DNA of 64,000 bases, from assembly GCA_008632985.1 (NCBI GenBank), contig QPGO01000017.1:248001-312000 (forward strand). Reading direction: 5' to 3'. A program made the translations under genes and the position numbers. The notes beneath the pieces were generated by a model. The model made no database searches. It saw only the letters and a list, made by a program, of their open reading frames with translations, and had not been told where the DNA came from. Below, one piece after another: positions 1-33,901 of the stretch. The stretch is from Psammoneis japonica (Eukaryota). Position 1 is the stretch's first letter. The number at the start of each line of letters is the position of its first letter.

Positions 1-399
1 CCAAAACCCCCAAACATGCTGACTGACTGAGACTCTTTGTGCAAATTCTGTGCAAGATTTTTCAGCCAGCAGCTGGCTGGAGATGCTCCCCAGAGATTGC
101 TCACCCTTTTCTTTGGCAGCACATCAGCTGGAAGAAGGGAGAGTGTTTCAGCCATTGGCTGGCTCAAATGTCTTTTCTTCATTTTGCTTTTGAGCCATGA
201 ATGTGCTGGCTGTGTTGATGGGAGATTTTCTTTGATGTTCAACAAAGCTCAAAACATTTGTTTTTCTGTGCAAAAAAGGGCATGCGTGTGCCACTTGAGT
301 CTGGAGCAAGTCCTCTGAGAGGGAAAAAGAGCACAGCTTTGTGGGGGGTGGAACACTTCTGCTCATTTGGCCCCAATCTCATTTCACTGAAAACACTGT

Positions 400-1600
400 G
401 AAAGACTGCTTGCCTCTTCCATCTCATCAAAATGGCAACACAGCTGCACTTGAAATGGCCAACAGGTCTGCTTGCCAATCTTGCTGGACTTCCCTGTCTG
501 CTTGTGTTTGTTTTCAAATGCATGGCTTGATGTCACATGTCAAGGTGCAACTCAGATTTCCCCTCAAGATTTGGCACAAGCTGCCACATTGGATCGATGC
601 AAAACAATGCAATGGGTTGTCCAAAGCCAACCATCTGTTGCCCAAATTTGTCATGATTGTCAAAAAAGGCAGCAAAGGCAGGAATGTCTGAATGAGCACA
701 AGCAACAATGGTTGCACAGCTGGCAATGCAGTGAATGCCAAAGTGCTGGTCACCAACCAACACTCTGGCATTGTGGTCTTTTGGCAAAGATTCAAGGTGC
801 TGTGAGAGAGGCTCCAACCTTCATTTTAAGCAAACACACTGGCCCACATGCATGCCTTTGCTTTGGTGCTCATTGCTTTTGGTTGGCCAGCCAAAGACAC
901 AGCAATCTTCAGCACAATGATGCCAATGCCAGCAGCAGCAACAAATGCCTCAAGAGCATCCAAATGGTCAACACATGTTAAAAACACCCAGTGAAATGCT
1001 CCATCCACAACTGCACGCAGTTCATTTGCAGTGCCAGGTGGACAAGAGGAGTGACCATCATTGACAACAAGGTCTTGATGCACAGACTTGAGGACTGAGA
1101 TGTCTCATGCTTTTTTTCATGGCTGAACTTGTGCCAACCATTTCTTGGAGCATCTTTGGTGGCAAGCAACTTGGAGCAGTTCATGAAGAAACGCTCTTGC
1201 AGGAAAAGCTGGCTGGCACATTTCCATCATAGACTCGCTGCTCTGAGATCTGGAACAAGTGAGTGGTTGTGACAGCACCTTCACAAGCTCTGATGTTTCT
1301 TCAGTCAAGTCAACACTTCTCAGTGCAGCAAAAGCATTTCATTGATTTCTTTCATGCCAAAGCAACTCTGAGGCTTGCAGCAAGGAAATCTTGCTCAGCA
1401 CTGGTGCCTCTCCGAGCCTGTCAACAAAAAAGCTGCAAGCTCTTCTCTGTAATTTCATTGCCTCAGCATGATGCACAAACCACCAAGTTGCAGAATTTGT
1501 CACCACTTCCAATCAATGCTAAAATGAGGTCAAAAGAATCCTTGCCCATCACTGCACCTCTCTGGGGAAATAAACCAAGCCTGATTTAAAGTGCCGCCAC
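400..1600 (-). mobile_element. Degenerate 3' fragment of a non-LTR (LINE) ORF2
   Basis: Minus-strand remnants resembling LINE ORF2 C-terminal motifs (SSCPPGTANE Cys knuckle near 1040; QCGSLCQILRGNLS near 560). Heavily frameshifted; borders approximate. Confidence 0.35.
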
Positions 1601-3613
1601 ACCTTTGCCCAGCAACGCTGGTGCTGGCCAACCCCCCCCACACCTCCAGCACACCCTGCAAGGGATGAGGCACCTGAGCCATTGTCTCCCAGGGGAGACG
1701 CCCAATTGAAATGGCTGGAAATGGCGTGTTTGCCATGTGCCAACAACTTCTTTGCTTCCTTCAAACTTTGCTGCAGGTGGGGCCAAACCATGGAAATCCA
1801 GCTCTGGATGCAAGTGGTGGAGAATGTCTGATGTTCTTCTGCCAAATCTGGCAAAACTCCTCAATCTTTGGCCAAGTGCTCTTGTCGCTCATTGCAAATT
1901 GCCATCAATTCATCTTTGGCCATGCGCCCATGAGATGACTTGCAAGAATCTACACTGTGGCCATGCATGAGCTGATTGTGTTTTCTCCTCCCACAATTCC
2001 AGCCATTGCTGCCACACAAACAATCCAATCTGAGCTGTCCAGTCAGGCGGTTGTTTGTTCTCAGCTTGGTGGCATTGACTGAGAATGCCCAAATTGCACA
2101 AACATGAGCATCCTGACCTGGCACCATCCCATGTCTGACTGTGCTTTCCACAGAGCTCTGCATTGGGGATCAACAACATCCTCAGGACAGGCTGTCTTGT
2201 TGTCAAACCAAGATTGCAAGGATTCCAGCAAGAAATCGCAAAGAGTGGGCATTGCGTCAATGTGATCACAGCACTTCTGCAGGCCTTGCAAAAATCTCCA
2301 ATGCCACACTTCCTCACTTGGACAGCAAAGAATTCCAATCCTCCATGGGATGTTTGTGTGTTGGGCAATGAGACGGGGATGCACTGGGTTTTGTGCAGGT
2401 TTGCAATCTTGTCAGTTGGAAGGAGATGGTGGATGAGTTCAACAGTGCCAAGGACTTGTTTGGACTGTCACTTGATGAGCACTGTGTGAGCCTGCCAGTT
2501 GGTCAAGTCCATGACTTCCGGATGCCATTGACTCCATTCCACAATGTGCTCTAGCAACTGGGGAGCAGTGGCAGTGCATCACATTTGCTGCTTGCAACTG
2601 GAAGTCCAAGCACCATCCTTGAGAACCAAGTGAGAATGGCAACAAGGGGACGGAAGCACTTGGGATGTGCAACAGGAGCAGCGACCTTGACATGTGCCAG
2701 CCTGTCAGCTTGGACATTCACCTTTGCATTTGATGGAAGGGGGTGGATTGGGTTGTTCCTGTCTTGGCATCCCTTGACCCATTTCACATTGAGGTGGGGT
2801 GAAAGGACCAACTTGGAATCTCTCATTGATGTGAAAGTGTGAAAAATTTCATTGATGATGTCCCAATCAGAGGCAAGTGCATTTGCTCTGTGGTGCTGTG
2901 TGTAAAAATTGCAAGAGTCATTTGATTTGTCCTCCAGAGAGCCAGAGCGGGAAGGGTGAGAGACAATTGCTTCAGACAACACACCAAAGACTTGTTCTTA
3001 CAGCAAAAGTCCATTTCATGAGCCAACTTGGATTGGCAATATTCCATGAATTGGCAAATGCAGCAGACAATGGAAAGGATTTTCTGCAGGCTTCTGCTTG
3101 GTGCAACAATGGTTCATTCCCAAATGCCAGCCCAGCACCCAGCACAATCCACCAGTGGGACACCTTGGAGTGCAACAGTCTGTCCAAATGTGGAGCCCTC
3201 ATTCACTGACCCATCACTTCCTGCAGAGTGAGCTCTGCAGAAACAAAGCAGTGCATCAAGATGAGGGGGGATGCGCGCAGGTCCAACTCAGCAAATGATG
3301 CTGACCCTCATTGTGGCAATGCCTGCAGCATTTTGAGAAACAATGCTGTGGCTGGCTGGGTTGCAGACAGAGACAGCAAGGTTTGTGGAAGATCAAATTT
3401 CCATCTCTCATTTTCAGTTGTTGACAGTTCAACACAGGGTGAGATTCATCTGATGGAGCAGGAGCTGTCTGTCTCAATCTCACAAATGGAGTCCGTTCTC
3501 TTGCCATTGACCGAGAAAATGTCACGCCCCACAAATCTTCTTGGGTGTGGGTGGTCCTCTGAAGGAGAGACACGTGCTGATGCCTGCACACACATCTGAG
3601 ATGGAGAGACTGG

Positions 3614-4060
3614 TGCAATGTGCAGCTGCTGACAAGAGTCAATGCATCACGGCGACGTGTCACAGGCTTTAAATGTCACAAAGGGCGTGACAAAAATGAC
3701 CTTTTGTCTGCGTGCATGCTGCATTGTGAATTCACAGCAGAGTGGTTCATCGCAACCATCAGGCAGGAGGCCAGGGGTTCAAAACCCTGAGTGGGAGTTG
3801 TCTGCAGCAACATTGATCACTGTCGAACGCACAAAACTCTGTGCAGTTCTGTGTGTTCCTTCGCACGCACCCACACTGTTCTGCCAAAACCATGCAGTGT
3901 CAGCACACGCCAGTGAAGAGCCGCACGGACACGTGATGCATGGGGAGGAGTGCAATGTGCAGCTGCTGATGAGAGCCAGCGCATCACGGCGACGTGTTGC
4001 AGCCTTCAAATGTCACAAAGGGCATGACAAAAACAACCTTTTGTCTGCATGCATGCTGCA
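3614..4060 (+). mobile_element. TRIM (non-autonomous miniature LTR retrotransposon), copy 1, 447 bp
   Basis: 110-bp direct repeats 3614-3723 and 3951-4060 with TGCA...TGCA ends; polypurine tract GGGGAGGAG 3942-3950; 4-bp TSD CTGG (3610-3613 / 4061-4064). Confidence 0.9.
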
Positions 4061-5509
4061 CTGGGGTCCCCTTTTACTTTCATCAGGTCCAGAACAAAGC
4101 CATCTGGCAGAGTTGTGTTGGAGACCAAAAGCACCTGCAAGTGGCGGCAATTTGTCCAATGGATTCTTGGTGAGTGAAGAGCTGAGACTGAACAGCAACA
4201 TCCGCAATGTGCTGGTTGGTTGTCTTGCTGCAGGGGAAGCACACCATCACAAGACAGTTGATCTTTGCCCTGGATTCTGTGTGAAAAAGAGCAAATGGAA
4301 GCAAACCAGCAGGATTGCATGTGAGGAAGCTCTGTGTCCACATCCCAAAAGAAACTCTTGCCTCTTGCCTGTGCCCAAATTCAGTTGAATCTAAGCAACT
4401 GAGACGCGCAACAGTTTGCAATGTTGATCCTTGCCAAGCTGCAAATTTTTCACTCCTTGGGAACATTTCAACAGTTGTTGCAGTTGCGCCATGGCACACC
4501 TTGTTTGACATCCAGGGATCAAAGTCCTCCTCTGCTGAGAGCTTGCGGACAGCTTTGCATTTCTGTTGCACCTGCATTTTGCAAAAACAGCTCACATTGC
4601 CTTCTGTTGGACTGTCTGCAATTCTTCGGCAAGGAAATTCAAGTTGGCCAATGCATGTGTCATGGAGGACAGGCAGCATGCATGGCAATGGTGCCAAGAT
4701 TTGGTCCTGTTGAGAGGACATGATCAAAGAAAAAGTGCTGCAGCATTGCTCTTCTTTTGTGGCTTCTGTGGCTGTGTCTTTTGGGTGTCAATGGGAGCAA
4801 CACAGTGCCCAAGAGCCTTGGAGGAGTGTGCACTGAGAGTTGTTTGCTGGGCTGGGAAGTGGGCCCATGTCTGCAGAAAAGATCTCAACTTCAAGATCAT
4901 CATGATGCAGGCAGATAAATGGCACACCATGTGCAGTGAAGTCCCGTTCAATTGCGTGAAATGAGCACTTTGGTGCTTCAAGTTTGTGCCCAGCAGTGTC
5001 AAGCAAATCGCGCTGGAGTTGGTTGTCTTGTTCAAGAGAGGAAGAGAGATCAAATGCAGCTGGTTGGGGACTTGCTCAGAAATCATCAACTCAATTGGAG
5101 GTGTTGTCAATGCAGCCTCTGTTGCGCACATGGATGAAAGAAAGCATTTGTTGCTCTTGCATCAAAGATGTCAAACAACTGGCTGCACAGCGCACTCCAA
5201 TGCCACAGAGAACTCCCTGTCCTGTGCCACAGAGGGGATGTTCAGAGGAGCATGAGTGACTTTGGTGTGCCAGGCCCAACAGGGCACAAAGCCAGTGCCG
5301 TGCGTGGCGAGGGACAGACATGTCAACTTCTGCCACTTCTGAAACCATGCTGTCACTTTGAGAACACAACCCCCCCACAACAGCCGGGGTGTTGCAATCA
5401 CAGCAAGAGGGGCAATTGTCATCACTTGTGAGCTGAGTTTTGGGTGAAGCCCTGGACATTTCCAACATCAAGTTCTCTGAGAACACGGGAGTTTGAGCAG
5501 ATGAAAAGG

Positions 5510-5956
5510 TGCAGCATGCATGCAGACAAAAGGTTGTTTTTGTCACGCCCTTTGTGACATTCAAAGGCTGCAACACGTCGCCGTGATGCATTGGCTCTTG
5601 TTGGCAGCTGTGTGTTGCACTCCTCCCCATGCGTCACGGGTCCATGCGGCTCTTTGCTGATGTGCACTGACACTGCACGGTTTTGGCGGAACAGTGTGGG
5701 TGCATGCGAAGGAACGTGCAGAACTGCACAGAGTTTTGCACGTTCGACAGTGATCAACGTTGCTGCAGACAACTCCCGCTCAGGGTTTCGAACCCCTGGC
5801 CTCCTGCCTGATGGTTGCGATGAACCACTCCGCTGTGAATTCATGGTGCAGCATGCATGCAGACAAAAGGTTGTTTTTGTCACGCCCTTTGTGACATTTA
5901 AAGGGTGCAACACGTCGCCGTGATGCATTGACTCTCATTGGCAGCTGTGCATTGCA
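5510..5956 (-). mobile_element. TRIM copy 2, 447 bp, opposite orientation
   Basis: Reverse-complement homologue of 3614-4060. LTRs 5510-5619 and 5847-5956; PPT (CTCCTCCCC on +) 5620-5628; own 4-bp TSD AAGG (5506-5509 / 5957-5960). Confidence 0.9.
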
Positions 5957-5958
5957 AA

Positions 5959-8765
5959 GGAACAACATCCACAGATCCCGAGATGCACATTTGGTGATTC
6001 TCCATGTTCTGTGCCAGCTCTCTCCACTTGAGGACACTTGCAACAATGTGAAAATTGGCCTTAAAAATGTGGGTCACCCACAAGCAGTGCATTTTGTCAT
6101 TCCTGGGCTCTTTGAATGTTGTCACATTGACAATGTCCTTCCATCAATCATGCAAACAACCCCACTTCAAAGTGCAGCTCATCAGATTGAGGCAAATTGC
6201 CAACAAGGTCTGTTGCATTTGGCCCAAGAATTCTTTGCTTGATGAAGGATGCCCTTGATCATCTTGATCTTTTATGTGAGGTGCAGGCATGTGCCAGATT
6301 TCAAGGAGGTTGATGTAGATTCAGACCACATCTTGAGTTTGGAAAAAAGAGAGGCTGTCAAAAGGTGACTCTGGACTGCGGGAGGAGTGCATCTGCAGAT
6401 GTTGGGTCAGCAAAGAGGTTGCCTCATTCAACTGACCTGTTTTGCACTCTCCATCAAAAATTGGTTCAGCCATGAATGCATTTCTTTTGCACCCTGGGTC
6501 TGCAGATGGGGGAGGGACAGTCAGTGGAGCACCTTGGGCTTGACCAAAATGATGTTCGTTGTGGGACTGCAAAGCTGCTGCATCATCTTCTGGAGCATCA
6601 TCAATGGCCCAGTTCTGGCATGTCTTGGGATCCTCATGTGGGTGCTCAGGTGCCTGAATGTTCCCAATGCCAGAGTCTTCATGATGGTGCTTGCAAGCAT
6701 TTGTCTTTTGGGAAACTCGCTTGGTTTCTTCTGCACAGCGCAGGTTGTGAAGAACTGTTGCCTTGGCCTTGGAGAGTTTTGCATCTTCCAATTCAAGTTC
6801 AGCAACATGAGAGTCTTGTTTTTTGTCTTGATGTTTTTGACTTTCTTTTGCAACCACTTGGCGGCACTCAGGACATGCCTTGCACAAGCAGCTGTGCATT
6901 CCTGTGTCATCGTGGGAAGCAAAAATGAGTCAGACAATTTGTGCTTAACTCAAAGGATGGAAGGAACCATGTCCATGCAGTTGCAGAACATTGGCGCTGT
7001 CCTGGATAGAACAAAAACTTGTTTTTGGAGATTTGCCAGCTCAACTGACCATTCAGGTTCTTTGCACCTGTGGCACTTCTTTGCTGTGGAAAGAGATGAC
7101 TGGAGCATGTTGTGGTCAAGTCATTCCACCAGTCAGTTGTTCGGAGCATCAGATTGGAGCAGTGCCTCTGATCAAGCAAGGATGTTGCATCCTTCTGCTG
7201 GAGGGCCCACAGCTTCCAGGTGTGTGGCAACATGCTTGCGGGAGTTCGCTTGAAGGTTTCAGAGCTGAAACCTGGGCAAATCTGCCAGGGGGTTCCCAAA
7301 CAAAGCAAGAGCATCAAAGTTCACAAAATGAGCTCTATGATTGGAACAACATCCACAAATCCCAGGGTTGCACATTTGGTGATTCTCCATGTGCTGTGTC
7401 AGCTCTCTCTACTTGATGCTTGCAACAATTTGAAAACTGGCCTGGCAAATGTGGATCACCCACAAGCGGTGCATTTTGTTGTTCCCAGAGGCTCTTTGAA
7501 TGTCATCACATTGATGATGTCCTTCCATTGATCATGCAAACAACCCCACTTCAAAGCGCGTTTCATCAGATTGAGGCACATTGCCAACAAGGTCTGTTGC
7601 ATTTGGTCCAAGACTTCTTTGCATGGCAAAGGATGCCCTTGATTGTCTTGCTCTTTTGTGTGAGAGTGCAGGCATGTGAGAACTTCCAGTGTCCAAGGTG
7701 CAACCCAGACTTCAAGGAGGTTGATGCAGATTCAGACTGCACATTGAGTTTGGAAAGAAGAGGCTGTCAAAAGCTGACTCTGGACCAGGGAAGGAGGAGA
7801 AGGAGTGCATCTGCAGATGTTGGATCAGCAAAGAGGTCACCTTGTTCAACTGACCTGATTTGCAGCACCCTTGTCCATCTGAAATTGGTTCAGCCATGAT
7901 TGCATTTTTCCTTTGCACCCTGGGTCTGCAGATGGGGGAGGGACAGTCAGTGGAGCACCTTGGGCTTGACCAAAATGATGTTTGTTGTGGGACTGCAAAG
8001 CTGCTGCATCATCTTCTGGAGCATCATCAATGGCCCAGTTCTGGCATGTCTTGGGATCCTCATGCGGGTGCTCAGGTGCCTGAATGTTCCCAATGCCAGA
8101 GTCTTCATGGTGCTTGCAAGCATTTGTCTTTCGGAAAACTTGTTTGGCTTCTTCTGCACAGCACAGGTTGTGGAAAACTTTTGCCTTAGCCTTGGAGAGT
8201 TTTGCACCTTCTAATTCAAGTTTGGCAACATGAGAGTCTTGTTTTTTATCTCCATGTTTTTGACTTTCTTTTGCAACTTGGTGGCACTCAGAACGTGCCT
8301 TGCACAAAGCAGTTGTGCACTCCTGTGCCATCGTGGGAAGTAAAAATGAGTCAGACAATTTGTGCTTAACTCAAAGGATGGAAGGAAACATGTCCATGCA
8401 GTTGCAGAACATTGACATCATCCTGGACAGAACAAAAACTTGTTTTTGGAGATTCACCAGTTCAGCCAACCATTCAGGTTCTTTGCACCTGTGGCATTTC
8501 TTTGCTGTAGAAAGAGACAACTGGAGCATGTTGCAGTCAAGTCATTCTGCCAGTTGGTGGTTTGGAGCATCAGATTGGAGCAATGCCTCTGATCAAGCAA
8601 GGATGTTGCATCCTTCTGCTGGAGGGCCCACAGCTTCCAGGGGTGTGGTGACATGCTTGGAGGAACTTGCTTGAAGGTGTCAGAACTGAAACCTGGGTAA
8701 ATCTGCCAGGGGTTTCCTGAACAAAGCAAGAGCATCAAAGTCCACAAAATGAGCTCTGCAATTGG
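5959..8765. repeat. Tandem duplication of ~1.4 kb inside the LINE (copy A ~5959-7345, copy B ~7343-8765)
   Basis: Both copies begin GGAACAACATCCACA.ATCCC and end CACAAAATGAGCTCT..ATTGGA, and share translated blocks such as DSGIGNIQAPEHPHEDPKTCQNW. Confidence 0.9.
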
Positions 8766-11700
8766 AGAGGAGATCCTGCACCCAAAAGCTTTGCACCCAC
8801 AAAGGTCAACAGCAGACAGGGCTCCAGGAGTGGCCAATGCACAGCCCAAGAACCTTCTAGATCCTCAAAAACAGGTGGAAAATTCAAGGTTTTGTGTTGA
8901 CAATGCATGACATCTGACATGTTAAATTGTTGAGCCACCATGGTGATCAAAGAATCAGAATTGTGACAAAAGTTGGCGTCAAAATCACCAAAAAGCATGG
9001 CTTCCTGGTTCTGTTCATCCCCAAAAAGTGCTCCAGAATGTGGGCAAGGTTGTGACAAAAGGCACGTTGTGGGTCAGGATTGGCTTGCCACCCTTGCTGT
9101 TGAAGTGAAGCCACCTGTTGTGCATGAGCAGTGGTTTTTCCTGCTGCCAATGAAGAGCAAGAACATGCACAACAACAAGATGCAAACATCACTTGTCAGC
9201 CGTGTTTTCCACAAAAAATTTGGATTGACCACCTCCCACCTCCCAAGGGGCTCTTTGAGTTGGGGGCAATGCCGTGCTGATGGGGAGTTGCATGACAGCA
9301 AAGATGTGCCACCCAGTTTGCGCAGAGCAGTGGAGGAGTCGTGGAAGACAAGCAAGCAAGTCTGCCATGATGAAGGGCTCATTTTGCTGCAGCAGAGCAA
9401 CTCTGATGGACTTGATGCTGTGTTGTGTCCAAGCATGTCTTGGACAAGCCAACAACATGTTGGCTTGAACTTCTGTTGCTGCTTGGGCACAATCATTGAA
9501 TTCTCTGCTGCACAAGTCAAAGGAGCACTGTTTGCATTAAATGCACACAGGCAAAAATGTGATCTGGATGTTTGGGTTCCATTTGATCTCCAACTGGTTC
9601 ATTGGCAGACAGATCAAAACAATCAATGATGCAAGAGGGGGGAACTTCATCCGGACAACAAATGGGGCCCCTGCTGTGCAGCAGGGTTGGCTGCAGTGGA
9701 AGGGGCTTCACCCCTCATCTTTGAGCTGTGCCACCTCAAAAGGAGACTTGAAAATGGACAAAAGTCTGCATTGTGGAAAAGAGGTGGGTTGGATGACTGG
9801 CCCCTTCTTGGAGAAATTTGCAGCACCAGAGTCATCAAGATCAGCATCATGCATGGTCGTGTTGTTGGGAGGTTTGGTGGTGGAAGACCCAGCAGGAGCA
9901 GAAACAGCAGCTCTCTTGCAGTGAGGCAATGCAGGAGCTGATTGAGCTGCTGGATTGGCAAGTGACTTGTGAATGACAGGCTGAATGGTGGAAACAAGAT
10001 TTGCAATGGATTCTTGTTGCATGAGCTCCAGAGCAGCAATGCGTTTGTCTTGCTCTTGTTGATTCTTGAGCATGAGTTGCTTCAACTCTGCAATTTTGTT
10101 TGTCTCAGAGGTCAGCTCCAACATTGGGGCAGCACCAGGGATTGCTGATCTGGGAGCATTCTGCAGAACTTGGGGACATGTCTGAAATCCACTGTGGACT
10201 CCCACACTCTTGGGAACTGGAGGATCAACAGACTGAGGTTGCTGCCATGGGGGGCTGTGGAGCCAGTTAGAGAAATGTCAGAGACATCCAGGGATGCCCA
10301 GCTTTGGATGCTTGTGCAGGTGATGGACTCAATGGTGTCTGACATGTTGTCATCAGTGCTCAGAATCATGTGACTGGGGTGTCCAACTGAGGGAACAGCA
10401 TCAGCTGGCAAATCATTCACCCAACTTTGAAGGTTGTCCAAAATGTGTTTCTTGGTTTGGCAAAAAAGTCCTTGTGCACAAGAACATTGTGCCTCAAAAC
10501 AGAGACAATGCACTTGGATGGCATGACATCAAAAACACCTGGCACTTGCTTGATTGTGTCCGACATGTGGAAGGAGACATTCTCCATGTGGCGCAACATC
10601 AGAATGACATGGGTCTGGGCAGATGTCTCATGTTGTGCTTGCAAACGGCTTTGTCAAACTCAACCGGTTGAGTGTGCCACCAATGGGGAAAAAATGAGAA
10701 CTAAAGGTTGCTCTTTTGGGACCTCCAGCAAGGCAGTGATCATGTCTTTTGTGCTGTCTTGGGCAGCTTCAATGGCACAGAAGGTTGGTTGCAGTGAATT
10801 GTCCTTGAGACAAGCGGCAGATTGGATGACAAGACAGAAGGGAGCACGTGAACAGCTTCAAGGAGGGGGCATTGCCACAAGTCATTTTTGCACCACATCC
10901 ACCGGGTGATGCTTCAGCAAGCAATCCATGAGGAAAGCAACACGGGAAAGATCAATGGCAGTTTTGTCCCGTTGATGCAAGCAAATGAAAATTCTGTTGT
11001 CCTTGAGAACTTCATTGACAAAGGGGATGTTCTCAATGTCCAACAAGGACAGAGAAGTGCAGATGCGGTGAGCAACAACAGAGGCAACAAGATCCACAAA
11101 TGTGATGGACAACAAAATGTTGCAAATGAGTGAGACCAGAGGTTCACTCAATGATGTTCACATCCAGAATTTCTGATCCACAGTTTGAAACAATCAAAAT
11201 TTTATCCATGAGAGGGTCCTGAGATGCTTTCTGTTGCAGGGTGTGAAGAATCGCAGTGTGACCCATGGCCGGTGTTGTGGAGGTGTTGTCATCAGCAGAG
11301 GCAAGTTCAAAACAATGAGTTGTCTCCTTGAGCACAGAGTGTTGGGTTTTCCTGACCCAGGGCCAGCCTGTGGCAGCAGGGGAGTCATCATGGTGATGGC
11401 TGTTTGGTGCAAAAGACATGCAGAATTCCACCTGGAAACTGCCAATGTGTGCTTGCAAAGAAAAGCACTGCACCTCTCTGGAGATGATCATCTGGCAGAA
11501 AAGAGACATTCTGACACTCAGAAACTGCACAGAACAAGTCTTTCAGAGCCAGCTGCAGCTGGAGTTTAATGTCTTCCCCTGTGCTCATTGCATTTGCCAT
11601 TGTTGTTGTTGTTGTTGTCAACACAATTTTGATTTCTTTTCATGCCCAGCTTCTTCTTCAAATGTCATCAAAGCACAAGTTTCCAGTGTGGCCAACAATG

Positions 11701-12258
11701 TCAGGAGCTCTTGAAGCTCAAACTCTGTGCTCACACTTGGCTCTTCCCACCAAGCTTTCTACAACAACCTTGAGCTTGATTGGACTTTTTGAACAATGTC
11801 AATGACGCAGTCTTGGATGGCCTCTAAAGTCTCTAAACAACTCAAGTCTCATGTGTGCTTGGTGAACACCCTGGCAGGAAGGAGCCACCTGTGCTGCAGC
11901 TTGACACAATGGCAGCATGAAGCAACATGGATTTCCAACACAATGCCAGACCTCATGACAAGCTCAATTTTTGCTGCTGGCTGCTTGGTTGTGCTTGGAG
12001 TCAAAGCACAAGTGCACTTGTTTGAGCTCACAAGATCAAGCAAAGAGAGTGGTGCACCCCTGGAATGAGAGTCTCTGCTCCTGGGTTTGGCAAAGGCAAA
12101 CAAGCTTTTCATTTTCAAGAGTCACGCAAAATCAAATTTGTGGATCAACCCTCCAATTGATGATCCATTCTGCTTGTGACTCATTTTTGGATGAGCCCTT
12201 TGACCAGTTTGAAATGTCTCATCCCACAGCCTGTTAAACAAATGACATCATTCTCCAA

Positions 12259-12547
12259 TTGAAAACTGGCAGATGCACAGTCATGAAGACATTGCAGACA
12301 TGAAGCCAATTCCTCATCAATTGATGCAATCAACTCCAATTTAAAGAGACTGCAAAATGTTCAGAGTCCCTCTGTTGAGTCATGCTGAAAGTCATCTGTT
12401 CAATGCTCAACACCAATGGAGAACCACTTCACTGCATGCTCACAATTTGTGAACTCACTTCACTGTGACAACTGAAGTCTCCATCAGCCCCAACACTCTG
12501 GTGAATGTTGTCAGCTCTGGTTCTGACACTTGGCAGTCAGGTGTTTT
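12259..12547 (+). repeat. Copia 5' LTR (hypermutated)
   Basis: Aligns with 24058-24300 (GAAAACTG..AGATG.ACAGTCATGA; CTCAACACCAATGGAGAACCAC; GCTCACAATTTGTGAA.TCACTTCACTGT); carries an extra internal segment of ~55 bp; lies just upstream of gag. Confidence 0.7.
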
Positions 12548-15017
12548 GGTGCACTTCCTCTGCACTGAGCAAGACAGAAGAGATGACCAGTCATCATGGT
12601 GTTTTCTCTGACACCTGCTCAGGCCATCACAGGCATTCTTGACTTTGTTGAAAAGGCACATCAAGCCATTTACAACAAGGCAGTCAAGACAACAATGGAA
12701 GCACAGGAGAAACCACTTCAATTCCTCAACAAGACCTCAAAGATTGAGCTGCCAAGAATGGTTGGGATGAAGATGATTTGTTCAACAAAGATTGTGTCAG
12801 ACACCACCAATTTGTTGACATGCTGTGGTCAGATTGAATTGGACCTCATCTGCAAATGCAAGTGCGTGCCCATCAACAAACCGGCAAGGCCAGCACAAGA
12901 CACAAGGATGCTTTGCCAGCTTCTTGTGAGCACACTTTCAGAAGAAGGCAATGCCATGATTCTGGTCTGGGAAAAGCAGCACAAGATTGTCAAGAACAAC
13001 AAGACACATCTGTTGGGAAACCTTCTGTTGAAGGCAACAATTCAAGAAAGTTGCTGGACACCAATGTGACTGCAATGAGCATCAAGATGAAGAAACTCAG
13101 CAATCTTGACAAACATCTCATCGCAGTGTCAAGTGACATTATCAAATTCAGCCAACATGTGCTGCTCTTGTTGCAAGCTCTCATGTCCCACAGACAATGG
13201 AAGACCTCCAATTGAACTTGTTCAAGGGATGCCTTGCAGCACCCAACAAAACATTCATTGATTGTGTCTGTTGCAAGCACAACAAGCATGACAAAGGAAA
13301 TGACATGGGTCCCAACGAACTGGTGAACCTCACAGTCAACAAGCAAAAAAAGATGGACAGTTGAGATGCAGGAATGGAGTGCACCATCCCTCAAGGAGGA
13401 GAAGATCCTGGCTCTAGAAGCAAAGACAGATGCCATCAAGAAATCATCTTGAGGCAAGAAAACCAATCCCAAGCAGAGTGGAAATCCCAGGAGTCAGAAG
13501 AAAGGAGGAAAAAACTTGTGGTCCCAAGCCTGGTTGGTTGAAGAAGGACAATAGACTCATGAACAATCAACTTCACAAGTGCCAATGTTGGAACAACCGG
13601 CCAAAATGTCATTGTCACAAGGACACGGGCAGAAAGTGTGATGGAAAGTGGCCCATCCACAAGCCATTGGCATGGAAGGGAAAGCCTTTGTTGCTTGGAA
13701 ACTTGGTGGTTCAAAACATCCTCCAGAAAAGAACAATGAGCCAGCAACAACCAAGAAGATCCAAAAAGACCTCAAGTCACTCAAGCCATGCATCAGAAGC
13801 TCTCACCACTGTTCTTGCAGATGAGATTGAGTCCTCTGACAAAGAATGGCTGGTGGAGCATGGTGACAAGCCAAACTGTGATTGGAGAATCCAGGGTGTC
13901 ACCATCTGCATGATGTTGTTTGCTGCATGGTTTGCAAGTGCCTTGCAGCCATGCCACTGTTGCTGCCACCAGTGCAATTTGTGTGGACCGCTGCAGCCTG
14001 CCGCTGGATCTCCATCACAGTTCATGAATTTTCAAGGGAAGTGGCTGCAAACACTCTTTCAAATTTGTCACTGGAGCTCATGTGTCACTGACAATTGTTG
14101 TTTTCTGTCTCATTGTTTCTTTTGGCAAGGACCCCAACAACCCCAATCTGCACTGTGTTCTATGATCCAAATGTTGGAAATGCGGACAATCAATGTGGAA
14201 GGCCCAGTCAAGCATGCAATGGATGGGAAAACAAATTGGTTGATTTGTTGAAAACAAGATCAATCAACTGTGCATGCAGCCAAGCAATCTCAAAGAGGAA
14301 GAATCAAGTGAGTCAAGGAACATCAAGGAAGATCAACAACAAATGTTGAACATGGTGCATTCAATGGGCATGATGGCAGCACTGGCAATCCCAGCAGTGT
14401 GCATGACAGCCCAGAATGATGCTCTCAAGCAAGAAAAACATGACTCAATTCAACACAGACTTGGGACCTGCAGGTGTGGACAACTGATGCACTGGATGTG
14501 CACCCAATGTGCAGCAGTGGACTTTGCAAGCAAGCTCATTCCAAGCAAGCAAGCTGCAAAAGGATTTGGGTCAAGAACAACAGGAGTTGTGATGGGCACA
14601 TTGATCTGGCCATGGTGTGATGACAATGGGGCTGCTCACTTGTTTAAGATCCCAAACTTGCACTGAGCACCCAATGGCAAAAGGTCCATCTGCCAAGTCC
14701 CCAACACTGGGTCAAAACACAAAAGGATTGCAAGCCAATTGAGGGTGTGGGAGAGAGCACAGACTCTGGGCAGTGCACCCAATGCTGGAGCCAGAAGAAA
14801 AACAAACTTGCTGTCCCCCCAAGCCCAGAAAGAAACAATGCAACATTTAATCTTGCTCCTGGTGATCAAAAGTTTGAAGCCTTCTGCACTGAATGTGGAG
14901 TCAATGATGCCATTGAAGACAACAATCCTGTCAAAGCAAGTGAGGTGAACATTGTGAGCAAAGAGGATGATGATGAGGAACAAGAGTCCAGTGATTCAGG
15001 GTTGGCAATGCACACTT

Positions 15018-15139
15018 GGCAGATGGTGGATGCTGGGTGGTGGGAAGTGGATGGCAGATGCTGGATGGTGGATGGTGGATGCCAGATTGTGGATGGCAGA
15101 TGGCGGGTGCTGGATGCTGGATTGTGGATGGTGGATGCC
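15018..15139 (+). repeat. 7-bp minisatellite (GGATGGT/AGATGGC variants)
   Basis: Roughly 17 degenerate tandem units, e.g. GATGGTG GATGGTG GATGCCA GATTGTG GATGGCA. Confidence 0.8.
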
Positions 15140-15642
15140 ATGAATCCAATCAAGGCTGTCTCATGACATGCCAAGTGAGACAAGCACACCTCAGGGTCAG
15201 AGGACAACACTCCAGTCTCCACTCTGTTCAATCTGGATGGACCATCTGAGGATGCAGGCAGAGCTTGTCTGCCTCAAGCCACAACAGACAAGGAAGATCA
15301 GCAAAGAGAAAAAGCATTTGCAGAGTTGTTGAGACATCATCAGAAACATGGGCATGGCTCATTCTGGAAACTGCAAATGATGGCAGAGCAGGGAGTCATC
15401 CCAAAACACTTGTCAAAATGCAGTGCACCTGCTTGCTCCTCATGCACACTTGCCAAACCAACTGAGCACAAGTGGAGAGACTGAAACAAGAAGGCTTGTG
15501 ATCCACAGAGCCAACTCAACCCAGACAAGTGGCATCAGTGGACCAAATGGTCTCACCCACACCAGGATTGATTTTGCAAATGGCAGGGTTCCCAACAACC
15601 AAGCTGAGGCACAAGTGCATGACAGCATGTGTCGACCAACCC

Positions 15643-16476
15643 TGACTTGTTCCAGACTCAGGTGGCATGCACATGCCCCTTTTCACACACAAAAAAAGTT
15701 TTTTGTGCTTCACACAACATCTTTTGCATTCAATTGTGATGATCACATTGGTGGCTTTCAAGCAAAATGAACAGATGAAGTCCAAGCCAACTAACAGCCC
15801 AAATGGCCACAGCTTTTGGTGACCATGACAGCCGGCTTTTTTGACCTTGTGGAAAATTGAATGATGCTGCAAGGCCCACAGCATTTTGCACAGTCTGTGT
15901 CATGATCAACAAGAATGAAAATGCTTGTTGCAGGCTGCAGCACAGCAAAAAGAAGTCCAGTCTGTCAGCAACAACAATTGAGTCTTGTGCCTCACTCACA
16001 ATTTGCCTTCAAGGACCAAATTTTTTTCATTGCCATGTGCATTTCCTCTGTGGCATCAACTGACACAAGTGTGTCAGTCATTTGTGCCAACAAATCAGTG
16101 AAACAGGGTTCAAAGTTGATGCCACTGTGTGGGCCGAGCTTCACTTCTTCTCACATCTGCCAAAACTTGTCAGTTGGTGAGTGTTTTGTTGAGTCTGTTG
16201 AGGTTAACTTGCACCCACATGTGTTGGCAAAAGACAGTTCATGTTGCACTTAAGACCAAATGTTTTTACACAAGAACATTGATTTGTGCCTTTCTGATCA
16301 CAAGTTGTGCATCAGAAAAGTGAGCTCTCATCTCATGGCGCCATTTGGCAATCAATGACTCAATCCATCCTTGGTTTTGAATGCATGGGCACACACATGA
16401 GAACTTTCTGCATGTGCCCATGACAACAAATTTGAAAATTGCGTTGCATGCAAAAACCCAAGTCTGGAACAAGTCC
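15643..16476. mobile_element. Non-autonomous TIR DNA element (MITE-like, 834 bp) inserted in the Copia integrase
   Basis: Perfect 15-bp inverted repeats GACTTGTTCCAGACT (15644-15658) / AGTCTGGAACAAGTC (16461-16475); flanked by ACCC on both sides; splits the integrase motif VDQ...(Y/C)VHLQKT. Confidence 0.75.
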
Positions 16477-19162
16477 ACCCCAGTTTCAGCTGTGTGCATT
16501 TGTTGCAAAAGACTGCAAGCATGGAAGAGATGTCAGAAGGCAAGAAAGCTTTTGAGTTGATGGCAAAAAATAATTGCAGAGTCAAAATCCTTGCTTGCCA
16601 TGCAGACAATGGGGCATTCAAGGCAAAGCAATGGGTCAAGCATGTTAAGACCAAGGACAAGGCCTGACATTTGCAGGCATTGATGCACACCACATGAACA
16701 GTGCAGCTGATCACTGCATCTGCAAACTGCAGGAACATGCCCACAGCATGCTCATGTGTGCAAACCAATGATGGCCCTCAAGTGTTGCCGCCAACCTGCG
16801 GCCATGTGCTGTCCAAATGGCAAACAATGCAGTCAATGAAATGCCCAGCTTCCAAAATCCAAACACTGCACTCCAACTCAACTGCACACACAAACAGATG
16901 TCTCAAGCAACCCCCCAAGCACTGAATTCCCTGTTTGGATGCCCGGTGCACGTGTGCTGGATGACCAGCTGCAAACAAACCACCCATTTTACAAGTGGAG
17001 GCAATGCTCGAAGGTCAGAGTGCACTTGGGGACAAGCCCAATGCACAACAGGAAAATTGCCTTGGTTCTCAACAGAGCAGCAGCACATTCAAGTCCCCAG
17101 CTCCATGTGAAGTGTGACCCCAGCTTCCACATGATAAAACAGGACAAGTTTGTTTCAATGTGGCAAACAAAAGCCAGATTTGTGAGTCAGAGGGAGGCGA
17201 ACAAACCAACCCAAGGCAAGAACAAGATGGCACTTGCACCTGAAGCCACCAACAAGCAGAGCATTCCTCAGCAAGAGTGGGCAATGCCTCCCTCAGAGGG
17301 AGCATCAAAGAAGAGGAAGTTTGACAAGAACCCAAACCATGCCAACATTCTCAACAAAACACTGGAACCACCCAAAGCCAATGAGCAACTGGCACAGCCA
17401 AATGAACAGGCAGAATCACTGGAAGTGCTTCCACAGCAGGAGGGTGAGTCTCACCCTCCCAGAGTGCCAAGGACACCAGATGTGACAACAAGATCAGGGC
17501 AAAAGAGCCGGCCAGTTGAGTGGCTGGCACAAGCAATGACAGCTGAGCTTGGTGCCAATGCCAAAGGGGACATTGAGAGAGAGACATTTTCACCAGCAGC
17601 TGTCTTTCCATGTGACAAATTGCCCACATTGGATGACACTGACCCTCTTCCAGCACATGAAGCTTCAACAGATCCCGACACCATGTGCGTGCACCAAGTG
17701 ATAAAATGACAAGATTGCAAGGAATTTGTTGAGGCAGTGTGCAAATGAGTTGAGGCACAAATGAAGAATGGAAATTTTGCCACAGCTCCAAGATTGATGG
17801 TGACTGACAAGAGAAGGAGATGCTTCCAGCTGCATGGCAGATGAAATGAAAGTGGAACGTCCTGACCCACACTGTCAAAAAAATGGAAGGCAAGATTGAA
17901 TGTGGACAGATGAGAATGAGAAAAGGGGCTGGCTGTGGCAAAACATGTGCCCCGGTTGCATCCCAGAACTCAGTGCACATGCTGCTTGCCATGGGAGCGG
18001 CACACAATTGGCACACCAAGCAACTGGATTGTGTGCTGGCATTCCCAGCATGAAGTGTGTGTGCAAATTCCAAAGGGGTTTGAAATCAACAAAGGAGATT
18101 CAAAAGACTTTGCACTGCACCTGCATTGGAGCCTGTGTGGACAGAAACAAGCCGGGCAAGTGTGGAACAAACACCTGGCTAACAAGCTGACAAAAGACCT
18201 GGGCTTGTTGGTCCAGTCCAAGGTTGATGAGTGTGCACTTCACCAAGGCAAAACAATGCACTTGCTGTGTGCCAACAATGGTCTGTTGGTGGGACCTGAT
18301 GAGGAAGAAATTGATCAAATCATTGAAGAGGTGAAGGCCACCAAACTGGACATCACAGCAGAGGGAGACATGCAAGACTTCATCCTCAGCATCAATGTTG
18401 AAAGAAAAAGTGGTGGTGCCATGCATCTTGTGCAACCACACCTCATTGACCAGATGCCAAGGGACATGAAGCTAGATGGCAATGATGTCAAGCCCAAGGA
18501 CACTCCAGCCTCATCCTCAAAGTTGCTGTCCAGGCATTCCAACTCAGAGCCCTTTGATGGACACTTCAACCATGGATCAATCATTGGCAAACTGAGCCAC
18601 AACTTCCAGCAGACCCTGGAATGGAACACAGTCAAGCACTCAAGTGGTCAGAACCCCATCTGAAGGGAACAAGAGACAAAGGCACAGTGCTTGTGCCTCA
18701 AAAAGGCAAAGACTCAGAAGTGCATGTCAATGCCAACTTCAGCGGCAACAGTTGGGGCCCTCAAGATGCAGCCGCCAACCGCAACACTGCCAGGTCCAGA
18801 CATGGACGTGTTGTCATAATGTGTGCCGGATGTCCTGTGCTTTGGAAATCTCAGCTGCAAACAGAAACTGCATTGAGTTTAACCGAGAGTGAGTGGTCGA
18901 CCATCACATGAATTGACAAGTGCAGCGCCTTTTGTTGTGGTGGAATTGCTCAAGGAAATGAAGCATGACAGCTTCCCAGCACACACCTGCAAACCAACGG
19001 TTCATTGTTGAGTGTTTGAGAACAACAGCGGAGAAGCTCTAGAAACTGCAAAGACCCACAAGTGTCGTCCAAGAACCAAACATTTGAGTGTAAAGCCGCG
19101 CTGCTTCAGGGATTGTGTGTCAAGGGGAGAAATGTCCACCCATCCCACAGACACAAAGGAGC

Positions 19163-19529
19163 TGCACTATGCTCGAAGAACGAGTGTAAACGAAAGTAGA
19201 ACGAAGTTCGAAAAGTGAAAATTATGAGATTAAATTTTGCTCTGTGATTTTTGGTTTCTCCGAACGAGTTCTCAATGGCCTAAAGCTTCTGTACTGTTTC
19301 TACAGACAAAAGGCCTTTCGGAGAATATGTTCGTGACAACAGATTGTCCGGATACGATTGCCATTGACACGTAAGATGTCAACATCGTCAATCGATCGTA
19401 TTTGCAATTCTCGACATCCGATCAACTCTGTGTGATCGTTCTGTCCTTTGTACGCATCCACGACTGTGGTACGATTGACATATAAATAATATATAATCAT
19501 AAATATGTATATAACAGTCGCATACTGCA
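19163..19529 (-). repeat. Gypsy 3' LTR
   Basis: Direct repeat of 23518-23884; terminal inverted repeat TGCACTATGC...GCATACTGCA. Confidence 0.95.
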
Positions 19530-22500
19530 TTCGCCTCCCTAATTGCACATTAGAGTCATTTGTAAGTGGATTATTCGACGGACATCGACAGTGTCAATAA
19601 TGTCTCCACTTTCACTGTATTGTGCCATTAGCAATGACTGTTGTTGTTTTGTATAGGCAATATAGGGCCGTTCCAATTTCCGAATGTCTTTTGAGAGTGA
19701 CATTGTTTGTTTCTCACTTAATATGTATATATATAGTATTACGTCGAGTATTCTCATTGACGTTCTTGTTGATATGAACACAAGGACTAATTGTCCTGGA
19801 GTAAGTGTTTTTCCTGACATCGATTGTACATAGCATCGTGCCCAGTACTTAATGTACGCTCTTAATTATGGCGTTCACTTACTTACTTGTGGATTTCATG
19901 TAGTTTGGCGGGCTTACTTTATATGCCATATTGCTCTGCTGCACTACCACGTTTCATAAGTAATAATAAACGATGGTCAAAGATATTATGACCATTTCGT
20001 CTTGATAATCAATCCTGTGATGGTTATGAATTCCATTATGGATTTTTTTTTTGTACTTCAACCATCTATCAGTTGGATTTTAATCGTTATTTGGACGTTT
20101 CTTTCTGACATACCGGTGTTATTTTGTCATTCCGAAGGCACTGGTTTCGTGCACTAAGTGGATAAATGTCCATTTTTCTTTTCTTTTTCTAGATCTTTGG
20201 CACATCTCGTGTGTCGACATGATGCACATTTTAATGTCTTGCCTCGTACATTGTACAATACAACCGTACGGGTGTTGTGAGATTGTCTTTTGCCAGTGTG
20301 AAGTGGATGCGCACAATGTGTGCCAATCTGTCACTGTTTTTTCCCAAATCGTCCTTTAAAAAGGCGATTTTATCCTTGTGACATGAGCATTTTTCGATCT
20401 CGCTCGCCTCCACGAAAAGTGTTCATATGACATGTCGCGTCCGACAATTTGGAGGGAATGTCTTTGTCCCGTTTTAACGGCAGGACATTGTCGTAGGATT
20501 CAATTTTCTACAGCAAGTCGGCTGATCGCGTCTGTCGCGACGATGTTCGCCTTGCCTTCATTGCACTCTAATTTGGGGCTGAAGTTGTCAACGCACGACT
20601 TTGTCCGTTGTGTCTTGTGATCTGCACATGTGTAAATCTGTTGGCCAAACAGCACATTTCGGAATTTTGTGAGTGTTTTCACTGTGGACAGAAGTTCTTT
20701 TTTCCGTTGCAACGCACAACATTGAAATCCGTGCATGATGACAACGCAGTTTTTGATTTGATGCGCTCCACATTTTCGGAGACTTTTCGTTCCGCACTTG
20801 TGCTTTTGCCGTTTGACCTTTGTTGAGGTGAATTTGGCCAGCATTGTGCAGGAGATCGTTGAGACTGCATGTCTCGACAACAGTGGCGCATGACAACGAG
20901 ATGTCGCAGTGTTCTTTGCGTTTTTCTCGTGTTGCGATTGCTTGAATCGCCTCCATTTTCTTTGCAATCGATTGCATGTCGTTGCGCACGGAAGTCTTGA
21001 CAGTTCATTTCAAGTTAAACAGTGAAGGACTTTTGTTGTCAACCTTCTAAGCGACTGTTCCAGTCGTTTGAATGCCGCACTAAGCTGTCACTTGTGCAGG
21101 TGACATTTTGAAGTTACTTTTGTCAGGCACAAACGATCACATGTGGTCGTTCTGACAACTTCAAACCTGTTGTGAGTTCACTCAAGTGTTGCACAAAAAT
21201 GTCTGGGGCTCTGTGGATTCTCATTGGAAGTCCGTGGCACTCATTTTCTCCCCACGGCATGATTTTCGTGTGAGCACGACGTGTGCTTTTTTTGTTTGAC
21301 ATGGTGGCATTCCATGTTTGAATCAAATGGATTGCATGTGTGAAACGTTCTTGCTTCAACAGTGTTTCCTGAATGTTGGGTAAAGGATGCACCACCTGCA
21401 TGAACCTCACACTGAGCTTCTGAGTGTCGGACGCAGTCGAACTCGACCTGTTTTCTTTGGACAATGAGTCTCAGAGCGACTCATTCAGAGCAATTTCATT
21501 CTCAAGACTTCAATCTTTCATGACAGGTCAAACTCCTTTTGATTGGACGCCTCCAAAGACTATGACAGGAGAAGGTTCTCACGCGTCGTGGAATCGCGTC
21601 AGATTTTCCACGATGAGATCCACTGGTTCTTCCCATGCATTCGTCTGAGGAACTTTTCAAAAAGATTTCAACCTCTTAAGAAGAAGATTGAGTTGGTTGT
21701 GTTCATTTGGGTTAGATGCATCGCCGTAGTTGTCACTTGATTAGGATCGATGACGTGACAATGTGAGTCGAGGACCATTGGTTCCGTCATTAACTCCATT
21801 CACGGCGTCACATTTTTCAATGTGATCGGTTTTCAGCTTGAAAACATCGGCATCGAAGAGTGCACGAACATTCTTCATAGGGCAATTGCTTCTTCCCATT
21901 TGATTTCTTCATTTGCGTAGTCCAATGTGACTTGCAGGACTGGACATTAAGTCGCGTCCCATGATCATATCATTTGAACCTGAAGAAAATTTGGTGTTTT
22001 CAACATGTGCTGTTTGAATGTCAGTATGCCTTAAATTTCGCATAGTGAGAACTGAATTCGGTGTTTACTATCAGTCGTAAAGAGCTCACCCTTGGTTTCC
22101 CAAGTTTTTGGTGGCGGATTCTTGTGTTCTCAACTTTCGCACGAATTTGCGCAAAATTATGGTTGACGATGTTCCGTTATCGATAGGAACACGTAGATGC
22201 TTTTTTCTCTCCTTTCCCAAGGAAGCATTCATATAAATGATGACTCCTGGACTAGTGTGAATTATTTCTGCCTTTTTTCTAGGCTTCCTAATATCCAGCA
22301 AAGCAAATAATTCGTGAATAGACCCAAATTATTCTTCGGATTCACTCTGGATCATCCGATCAAATTGGTATTTTTCTTCACTGAGGGTATCAGAATCTGT
22401 TTCTTTGCCCTTATGCTCTTTTTCTTTGTTCGAGGAACTCGCTTTGAGTATTTTTTGAACCGCCTGATCAACCATGACGTTCAACTCTTTTTTGCGAGCG

Positions 22501-23517: not shown

Positions 23518-23884
23518 TGCACTATGCTCGAAGAACGAGTGTAAACGAAAGTAGAACGAAGTTCGAAAAGTGAAAATTATGAGATTAAATTTTGCTCTGT
23601 GATTTTTGGTTTCTCCGAACGAGTTCTCAATGGCCTAAAGCTTCTGTACTGTTTCTACAGACAAAAGGCCTTTCGGAGAATATATTCGTGACAACAGATT
23701 GTCCGGATACGATTGCTATTGACACGTAAGATGTCAACATCGTCAATCGATCGTATTTGCAATTCTCGACATCCGATCAACTCTGTGTGATCGTTCTGTC
23801 CTTTGTACGCATCCACGACTGTGGTACGATTGACATATAAATAATATATAATCATAAATATGTATATAACAGTCGCATACTGCA
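23518..23884 (-). repeat. Gypsy 5' LTR
   Basis: Direct repeat of 19163-19529; upstream of gag on the minus strand. Confidence 0.95.
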
Positions 23885-24057
23885 GAGCAACTTGCCGATT
23901 GTCTTGCAAAGCCGGTGAGTGCAGATGCACTTCTCTGGTTGCGTCCGCTGGCAATGGGGTGGCAAGCCCACTGCATTTCTACTGGGTGTTAAGTGCGATG
24001 TCCCAAATTACAGGTTCGGCGTCTGGCTGATTGGCTAGATCATGTCAAAGGGCAAAA

Positions 24058-33873: not shown

Positions 33874-33901
33874 TATCCCCTGTAACGGAGACTCAAGAAG
33901 A

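Follow-up and report, generated by a model that had tools for sequence, protein, structure and literature searches.

What has removed almost every TpA dinucleotide from two long blocks of a diatom chromosome and left the genes between them alone? The question is raised by 64,000 nucleotides of the Psammoneis japonica genome (assembly GCA_008632985.1, contig QPGO01000017.1, positions 248,001 to 312,000; this whole stretch is called the window). The blocks are silent, transposon-rich diatom chromosomal DNA in which nearly every TpA was turned into TpG or CpA after insertion and duplication of the elements, and we give a probability of roughly 0.8 to the process being real, in place, specific for TpA and restricted to certain loci. 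An earlier reading of the letters alone (the sequence-only reading) had placed the first TpA at position 827, had found only two CpG in the first 826 nt and had described TpG and CpA as dominant in a block from 1 to 19162, with normal genes 5 kb away. Counting confirmed each of these statements (the two CpG are at 285 and 595) and the block is real, but a second one, from about 43251 to the end of the window, had been left uncovered. The window is laid out as follows.

1..19162, no strand: hypermutated block 1, nested degraded transposable elements; TpA at 5% and CpG at 15% of expectation
24600..43000, no strand: unaffected diatom gene block, the internal control (TFIIH p62-like, DnaJ, DEAD-box helicase, ornithine decarboxylase, sigma-70 factor, SDR and others)
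43251..64000, no strand: hypermutated block 2, same signature as block 1, continuing past the window end

Observed and expected counts (observed/expected, o/e) of the dinucleotides concerned were as follows in three regions.

1-19162: TA 65/1299, CG 166/1094, TG 2136/1160, CA 2203/1225
19163-43000 (genes): TA 995/1667, CG 1344/1320, TG 1717/1531, CA 1620/1438
43001-64000: TA 83/1430, CG 287/1199, TG 2244/1264, CA 2380/1356

The blocks thus combine a TA o/e of about 0.05 with TG and CA o/e values of about 1.8. The sum of all pyrimidine-purine (Y-R) dinucleotides was constant (0.2385 and 0.2375 in the blocks, 0.2361 in the genes and 0.2380 in related elements), as expected if transitions do no more than turn TA and CG into TG and CA. 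The GC content of the blocks was not lowered (0.45-0.52) and AA was not depleted (o/e 1.0-1.6); in the gene block TpA was mildly under-represented too (o/e 0.60). Both block edges are sharp within tens of bases: after a TA at 19091 the dinucleotide becomes dense from 19168 on, and the dense stretch lasts until 43250, with the next TA at 43423. Just outside block 2, at 43001-43250, CpG was already low (4/14.3) and TpA normal (20/16.9), so that here the CpG-poor zone is about 250 bp wider than the TpA-poor zone.

TpA is present in every tyrosine (Tyr) codon, and the fate of conserved Tyr was followed in an old Copia-type element of block 1, which comprises three pieces.

14437..19161, plus strand: what is left of an old Copia-type polyprotein, corresponding to residues 69-1290 of a 1315-aa relative; conserved Tyr kept 0/27
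23885..24560, plus strand: continuation of the Copia element beyond a later insertion, with C-terminal codons at 23885-23962 and then the 3' long terminal repeat (LTR) region; partly converted
12365..12551, plus strand: repeat fragment, likely the Copia 5' LTR, with 0 TA and 0 CG; its partner is 24115-24300

Columns were taken as conserved at 70% agreement or more among at least 12 full-length relatives. The 27 conserved Tyr had become Cys (12, TGY), His (10, CAY) or another residue (5); 22 outcomes of the transition type compare with one transversion (TAY to TTY, Phe), and neither Ser nor Asn nor Asp was found. Other residues were kept in 386 of 520 columns (summed by hand), among them Cys 12/13, His 16/19, Pro 38/38, Trp 15/17 and Gln 20/21. 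Arg was kept at 12 of 31 positions, as AGR only, and reads CAA, CAC, TGC or TGA at the remainder because of the CpG decay of CGN codons. The continuation is less affected, with TA at 9/22.1 in its first 338 bp and 35/47.2 across all 676 bp. The Tyr-to-Cys motifs quoted in the sequence-only reading are all present, LCGQKQAG at 18133, QLDCVLAF at 18021, CGTGQG at 5214-5231 (minus strand) and QLADCL at 23894, the last of them outside the stretch 1..19162 in which it had been placed; the family consensus at the Copia motifs is NVYGQKQAG, QLDYVLAF and QLADYL.

Is the Copia family itself poor in TpA? In 73 related loci from metagenomes TA o/e ranged from 0.34 to 0.90, and in the 71 of them with at least five conserved Tyr columns (two were dropped) the median Tyr retention was 0.92, with at most three Cys and His together in each. 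The relatives keep TA and Tyr, so the family is not TpA-poor, and the worry that active or consensus copies might themselves be TpA-free is answered. None of the 73 loci carried the signature; since the peptide patterns used in the metagenome scan favour intact copies, these loci serve as a control and not as evidence of absence elsewhere. Among 191 homologous proteins none was Tyr-poor, apart from two short ones (P0304 and P0308, see below). The two loci with the lowest TA o/e (L033 and L043, 0.34 and 0.47) had CpG o/e values of 0.09 and 0.38 and raised TG and CA; their composition reflects mainly CpG decay, since most conserved Tyr (8/9 and 17/21) were kept.

Duplicated sequences within block 1 show that the conversion took place at the locus.

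3614-4062 / 5508-5956, no strand: inverted repeat pair, 88.6% identical as DNA and 99.3% in purine/pyrimidine code
5959-7378 / 7343-8799, plus strand: tandem duplicate, 128 of 159 differences being transitions, with 24 TG/CA doublets

Transitions make up 48 of the 51 differences in the inverted pair, and 30 of the 51 fall into 15 TG/CA doublets, in which one copy reads TG and the other CA. Outside Y-R sites only 7 differences were found among 449 columns, and conversion of TpA was near complete. From the CpG counts we estimate that about 2 doublets derive from CpG and about 13 from TpA; the latter mean that about 26 TpA were converted independently in the two copies after the duplication, which is roughly all that such a stretch should hold. 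The same change can be read from the LTR-like fragments: 24115-24300, which lies outside the block, still has 7 TA and 4 CG, and in its partner 12365-12551 six of the seven TA have become TG or CA and three CG have become TG. Changes between paralogous copies therefore concentrate at TpA, as the proposed A-to-G change at this dinucleotide demands.

The loss of TpA can be told apart from the decay of CpG, which stands at 15-24% of expectation in the blocks. In the inverted pair 13 CpG are still common to both copies, against a single TpA, and two segments, one of them inside a young LTR element that interrupts the Copia element, have lost TpA ahead of CpG.

19163..23884, minus strand: young LTR element inserted in the Copia element; LTRs at 19163-19529 and 23518-23884, RNase H-like remnant on the minus strand
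20300..22000, no strand: converted patch within the young element; TA 23/125.4, CG 85/85.0, Tyr to Cys at conserved RNase H positions
51501..55300, no strand: segment in which TpA loss is ahead of CpG loss; TA 21/234.5, CG 167/240.1

Since TpA was lost here where CpG is intact or nearly so, TpA loss is separable from CpG decay and faster. CpG decay to TpG and CpA is thus superimposed as the slower process, and the conversion of TpA is a separate, much faster and locus-restricted one. The sequence-only reading was right that deamination of 5-methylcytosine explains the loss of CpG and not the larger loss of TpA; its idea that the process is recruited to methylated DNA finds no support in these two segments.

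Conversion has begun on a very young insertion. The element of about 4.7 kb breaks the Copia element at 19162/19163, the latter resuming at 23885, and is flanked by a 4-bp target duplication (GAGC). Its 367-bp LTRs are identical at 365 of 367 positions (99.5%), and both differences are TpA conversions, one TA to TG and one TA to CA, in the LTR that adjoins block 1, which suggests that the process is recent or still running. The middle of the element (20300-22000) is converted and the LTRs and 19530-20299 (TA 62/70.6) are not; this could reflect patchy targeting in place or inheritance from a converted template. The element is defective: its open reading frames (ORFs) are all short, and compared with its relatives it lacks 11 residues in the RNase H region. 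A search of a representative library with its ORF 20503-21009 gave nine weak hits, too few for a Tyr count. One metagenome protein matching this ORF (P0304) has Cys at all three conserved Tyr positions (NYT, LTY, LQY) and another (P0308) at one, and both may be environmental, TpA-converted copies of the same family. TA is 3/21.7 to the left of the insertion and 9/22.1 to the right, a step that is not significant; the idea that the element inserted before most of the conversion was dropped for this reason and because the right flank is itself partly converted.

The process also reached a sequence that is no transposon.

53468..54446, minus strand: pseudogene of a host-type Xi-class glutathione transferase (GST; glutathionyl-hydroquinone reductase), about 63% identical to diatom proteins

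Only 2 of its 12 conserved Tyr were kept, 6 having become Cys and 4 His. Four other residues were kept at every conserved position (Gly 13/13, Val 12/12, Ala 11/11, Phe 10/10), and in total 151 of 186 conserved columns were unchanged. Further lesions are a stop at 53599, where CGA has become TGA, and a single frame shift near 53680-53720. The copy is a young pseudogene with damage concentrated at TpA. It may have been targeted as a duplicate or hit as a bystander in a silent domain. The change of A to G at TpA had been thought to be specific to repeats; it does affect both strands of repeat-rich DNA, but not transposable elements alone.

Which strand and which sites are affected? TG and CA gains were equal in the blocks. 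Along each block the choice between TG and CA gave 2181 runs against 2170 expected (z 0.33) and 2218 against 2290 (z -2.13), with lag-1 autocorrelations of -0.005 and 0.031 (genes, 0.006). The choice is therefore uncorrelated between neighbours, indicating that sites are resolved one at a time and not in strand-specific bursts; as about half of the TG/CA sites are ancestral, the absence of bursts in the runs and autocorrelation tests rules out strong coordination only. The surviving TpA are biased in context: 33 of 127 are in TTAA, compared to 2.6% of TpA in the control zone, and ATAC (0), GTAC (0) and ATAT (1) are next to absent. An additive per-strand model, in which the rate at each A is set by its 3' neighbour, fitted all 10 context classes with two baselines and gave exposures of 2.5-2.7 for T-A-T, 2.1-2.3 for T-A-C, 1.0-1.2 for T-A-G and 0.1-0.5 for T-A-A. 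The products agree with this, VTAA having gone to VCAA far more often than to VTGA (GCAA +55.7 and GTGA +1.9 per 10,000 four-letter words over control), so that the spared A is the one followed by A. Read from the opposite strand, the same data say that R-T-A is favoured and T-T-A spared.

The sequence-only reading knew of no described system of this kind, and here it has been overtaken by a preprint of 2026 on the rhizarian alga Bigelowiella natans (Mettrop et al., bioRxiv 10.64898/2026.01.13.699255). In mutation-accumulation lines, 231 of 302 new nuclear mutations fell into integrated giant-virus and virophage regions; a single one of these was neither A-to-G nor T-to-C, and the GC-biased ones without exception hit TpA. 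This corresponds to about 6e-7 mutations per site and generation as opposed to 3.5e-10 elsewhere, about 1000 times the baseline, and only some of the lines showed the effect. Elsewhere in that genome, reverse transcriptase and DDE domains are over-represented in clusters that are poor in TpA and rich in CpA and TpG. The authors propose an ADAT2-like deaminase and cite DNA activity of the ADAT2 of amphioxus and trypanosomes; diatoms go unmentioned in the paper (bioRxiv 10.64898/2026.01.13.699255). The two cases agree in the change of TpA to TpG or CpA only, on either strand (conserved Tyr to Cys or His 22/27 and 10/12 here), in its restriction to discrete regions of non-host origin with the remaining DNA normal, which was assessed here within the 64-kb window, and in the long-term footprint of low TpA and high CpA and TpG. 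They differ in the host, a rhizarian there and a stramenopile here, and in the target, viral inserts there and retrotransposon-rich blocks plus a host-type pseudogene here. Furthermore, TA o/e is 0.45 in the nucleocytoplasmic large DNA virus (NCLDV) region of B. natans and about 0.05, near saturation, in P. japonica, whose blocks also carry strong CpG decay; the rate was measured directly there, whereas the present case is known from its footprint. Nothing is said in the abstract, Results and Discussion of the preprint about a preference at the +1 base, independence of the strands or survival of TTAA. Our case thus shares the B. natans signature in another branch of the supergroup and is not categorically new. 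Full-text search, which did not cover subscription journals, turned up no account of TpA hypermutation from a diatom or another stramenopile.

The process in P. japonica is probably the diatom version of what was watched in real time in B. natans, where foreign DNA is hypermutated after its integration. We propose that an enzyme, for which a deaminase of the TadA/ADAT2 type or another one of the cytidine deaminase (CDA) fold is a candidate, would be drawn to DNA that is silenced, repeated or foreign and would deaminate adenine to hypoxanthine in the chromosome, after which replication would fix the site as G. Tyr codons, TAA and TAG stops, TATA boxes and AATAAA-type signals would be lost as a consequence, and mobile elements would be disabled without the creation of new stops. 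In the natural tRNA substrate of TadA/ADAT2-type deaminases the target A is always preceded by U (U33-A34), and the U-A-C-G of bacterial TadA resembles the favoured T-A-C. Adenine deamination in DNA is the likeliest candidate chemistry.

Of the competing explanations, the one that fares best is a targeted process starting at thymine. The T in R-T-A would undergo modification or oxidation, for instance by a dioxygenase of the TET/JBP type that yields 5-hydroxymethyl- or 5-formyluracil, and would then mispair with G and end as C. TpA is self-complementary, the two routes cannot be separated by sequence, and every context result translates (T-A-Y being R-T-A). Moreover, 5-hydroxymethyluracil is enriched at TpA in dinoflagellates and 5-formyluracil mispairs with G. 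However, we saw no sign of such a base or enzyme in diatoms in this analysis, and a thymine that has been oxidised is usually repaired or else leaves a wider range of changes than the almost exclusive transitions at conserved Tyr, so that we consider this route unlikely.

Much less probable is A-to-I hyperediting of transposon transcripts by an ADAR- or ADAT-like enzyme, followed by reverse transcription and insertion of the edited copies. U before the edited A is the preference of ADAR and of fungal editing (in part after the Discussion of bioRxiv 10.64898/2026.01.13.699255), and the converted patch in a young element whose LTRs are almost untouched could be accounted for in this way. That patch is, however, raised in both TG (169/128) and CA (138/83). 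Editing of RNA would give runs of the same outcome, but TG and CA are equal and neighbours uncorrelated; the order Y > G > A at the +1 position is unlike the pattern of ADAR, by which a 3' G is favoured; and a GST pseudogene that is not a transposon was converted, copies duplicated in place diverged later through TG/CA doublets, and two LTR-like fragments of one element are in different states. For the blocks, RNA editing is largely refuted.

An error of sequencing, base calling or assembly at modified bases of heterochromatin has still less in its favour. It was examined with a public DNA run (X1) from the same sample as the assembly, whose library type is not on record; contigs rather than raw reads were compared. 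The run contains 99% of the sampled words of 38001-48000, and contigs assembled independently from its k-mers match 36001-47935 and 48090-49824 with no difference other than one letter in a single record. Over these pieces the depth, 60-77 compared to 60 on neighbouring genes, is that of a unique copy; misreading of one strand would halve it, so the depth counts against strand-specific misreading. The single difference to a unique contig, at 47250 (window A, contig G, within CTTAAC), is no TpA conversion. Paralogous contigs differ from the window by transitions at 184 of 302 places, including CA/TG doublets at 43589-90 and 46852-3. In addition, the longest X1 contig of 315 kb implies accurate reads, and the pattern ends at an LTR insertion with intact target duplication, is graded in the partly converted segments and preferentially leaves TTAA. 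An artefact at the level of the chemistry is unlikely, and the suspicion that the pattern stems from assembly or base calling is not upheld, since independently built contigs show identical letters.

Error-prone patch repair of the DNA polymerase eta type at WA motifs, recruited to methylated DNA, which the sequence-only reading had offered as a candidate, does not fit and is hardly credible: A-to-G at TA is the hotspot outcome of this polymerase, but AA is undepleted in the blocks, TpA was lost where CpG is intact, and with 22 Cys or His against one Phe and no Ser, Asn or Asp at conserved Tyr, A:T transversions are almost absent. Least probable of all, and refuted by the data, is an inherited composition of the element families, or selection against TA without any hypermutation, for although TpA is mildly low in the genes and the related elements as well, the replacement of conserved Tyr by Cys or His destroys function, the relatives retain TA and Tyr, and the copies differ via TG/CA doublets.

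The core of the earlier proposal, a change of A:T to G:C at TpA on either strand of repeat-rich DNA and separate from CpG decay, was thus supported by all three tests designed to refute it, namely those of the relatives, of the substitutions between copies and of the authenticity of the letters. Some points weigh against in-place conversion by an adenine deaminase as we present it. Run X1 is not fully independent, as it shares its sample with the assembly, and the two LTR differences of the young element are a small count; no timing is drawn from the TA step across that element. The context fit presumes that the ancestral TA contexts were like those of the control zone or of related elements, and in the self-complementary TpA an A-to-G change is inseparable from T-to-C on the opposite strand. 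Eukaryotic ADAT2/3 accepts A after the target A, yet T-A-A is the poorest target here. Finally, we infer the chemistry as well as the rule of targeting, which could rest on the homology of repeats, on the state of the chromatin or on small RNA.

Three other known systems invite comparison. Repeat-induced point mutation (RIP) of ascomycete fungi is likewise a locus-restricted burst of transitions which ruins repeats, with sharp edges, a dinucleotide footprint and possible leakage into, or targeting of, gene copies. However, RIP converts CpA to TpA and lowers GC, whereas the present process destroys TpA, raises GC and creates no stops; the opposite direction, already pointed out by the sequence-only reading, is evident from the near absence of TpA, the doubling of CpA and TpG and a GC content that is not lowered. 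RIP is set off in the sexual cycle by duplications that exceed a certain length. Block DNA is partly multi-copy, as in block 2 with a summed contig depth of up to 1158 compared to 60 for unique DNA, and partly of unique depth; conversion itself lowers the similarity of copies. Deamination of 5-methylcytosine at CpG acts in these blocks as well, turning CGN Arg codons into TGY, CAY, CAA or TGA, but TpA is beyond its reach, and in two segments the loss of CpG trails that of TpA. The ADAR (A-to-I on dsRNA) and APOBEC (C-to-U on cDNA) enzymes of animals also stand for host-driven hypermutation of selfish elements, and ADAR shares U/T before the target A; unlike the chromosomal, symmetric, site-independent and near-complete conversion seen here, they act on RNA or on cDNA before integration and leave strand-coordinated clusters.

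For targeted A:T-to-G:C hypermutation of chromosomal DNA there is thus one precedent, the rhizarian alga of the 2026 preprint, and a stramenopile case at saturation suggests an ancient process of wide distribution or else one with several origins. Any candidate enzyme has to work on the chromosome itself, treating the two strands alike and each site independently, with T-A-Y > T-A-G >> T-A-A; it has to outpace CpG decay and be separable from it, and to be able to convert a host-type gene copy. It is conceivable, though we would sooner bet against it, that an ancient and still active adenine base editor of duplex chromosomal DNA, with a T-A-Y context and recruited to silenced or invading sequences, is common to diatoms and chlorarachniophytes. 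If so, this form of immunity would be widespread in the stramenopile-alveolate-rhizarian (SAR) supergroup, large parts of genomes would have been shaped by it unnoticed, and mobile elements and integrated viruses would lose all their Tyr codons, their TATA and poly(A) signals and every type of stop but TGA. Protocols for transformation, genome editing and mutation accumulation exist for diatoms, which makes the question testable, and a natural adenine editor of duplex DNA would be of interest to genome engineers.

The consequences for the targets can be read from word frequencies (per kb, both strands; blocks 1 and 2 compared to genes).

TAA: 3.5 and 3.2; genes 15.6
TAG: 1.6 and 1.7; genes 20.2
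TGA: 51.5 and 45.6; genes 37.6
TATAAA: 0 and 0; genes 0.22
AATAAA: 0.05 and 0; genes 0.60

Conversion of TpA makes no stop codons and takes away two of the three, TAA and TAG. Elements would rather be inactivated through lost Tyr, other missense changes and lost promoter and 3'-end signals. Due to the erasure of TAA and TAG the blocks are full of overlapping frames on both strands, with 24 open frames of at least 150 aa in block 1; for annotation this means spurious long ORFs in converted regions, which gene callers could take for genes. At the same time, converted regions are nearly invisible to profile searches: of 220 six-frame ORFs of at least 90 aa from the blocks and the young element, two reached the cut-off of a transposon Pfam family and two more matched weakly. 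Over the whole scan only RVT_2 and GST_N_2 were found at family cut-offs, gag_pre-integrs and RT_RNaseH stayed below them, and six further weak hits looked like chance; the greater part of both blocks stayed unclassified. A query of the ESM Atlas with ORF 52035-52724 gave no usable hit. Recoding into purines and pyrimidines recovers repeat homology. The region 45900-48430 of block 2 is internally repetitive, with direct matches of 66-81% as DNA and 80-92% in purine/pyrimidine code, in which inverted matches appear too, and is probably a degraded tandem array.

The middle part of the window consists of compact, ordinary eukaryotic genes, and the best matches of the DEAD-box helicase are diatom proteins with up to 87% identity. 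A second run (X2), labelled 'DNA?', behaves as a transcriptome, since its contigs skip GT..AG introns. It gave no contig over 43006-50000, and a third run (X3) gave none anywhere, from which nothing follows for expression. By the X2 contigs two short introns were confirmed, one at 38731-38818 in the sigma-factor gene region (86 bases skipped) and one at 42511-42586 (74 bases) in a gene at about 42104-42769.

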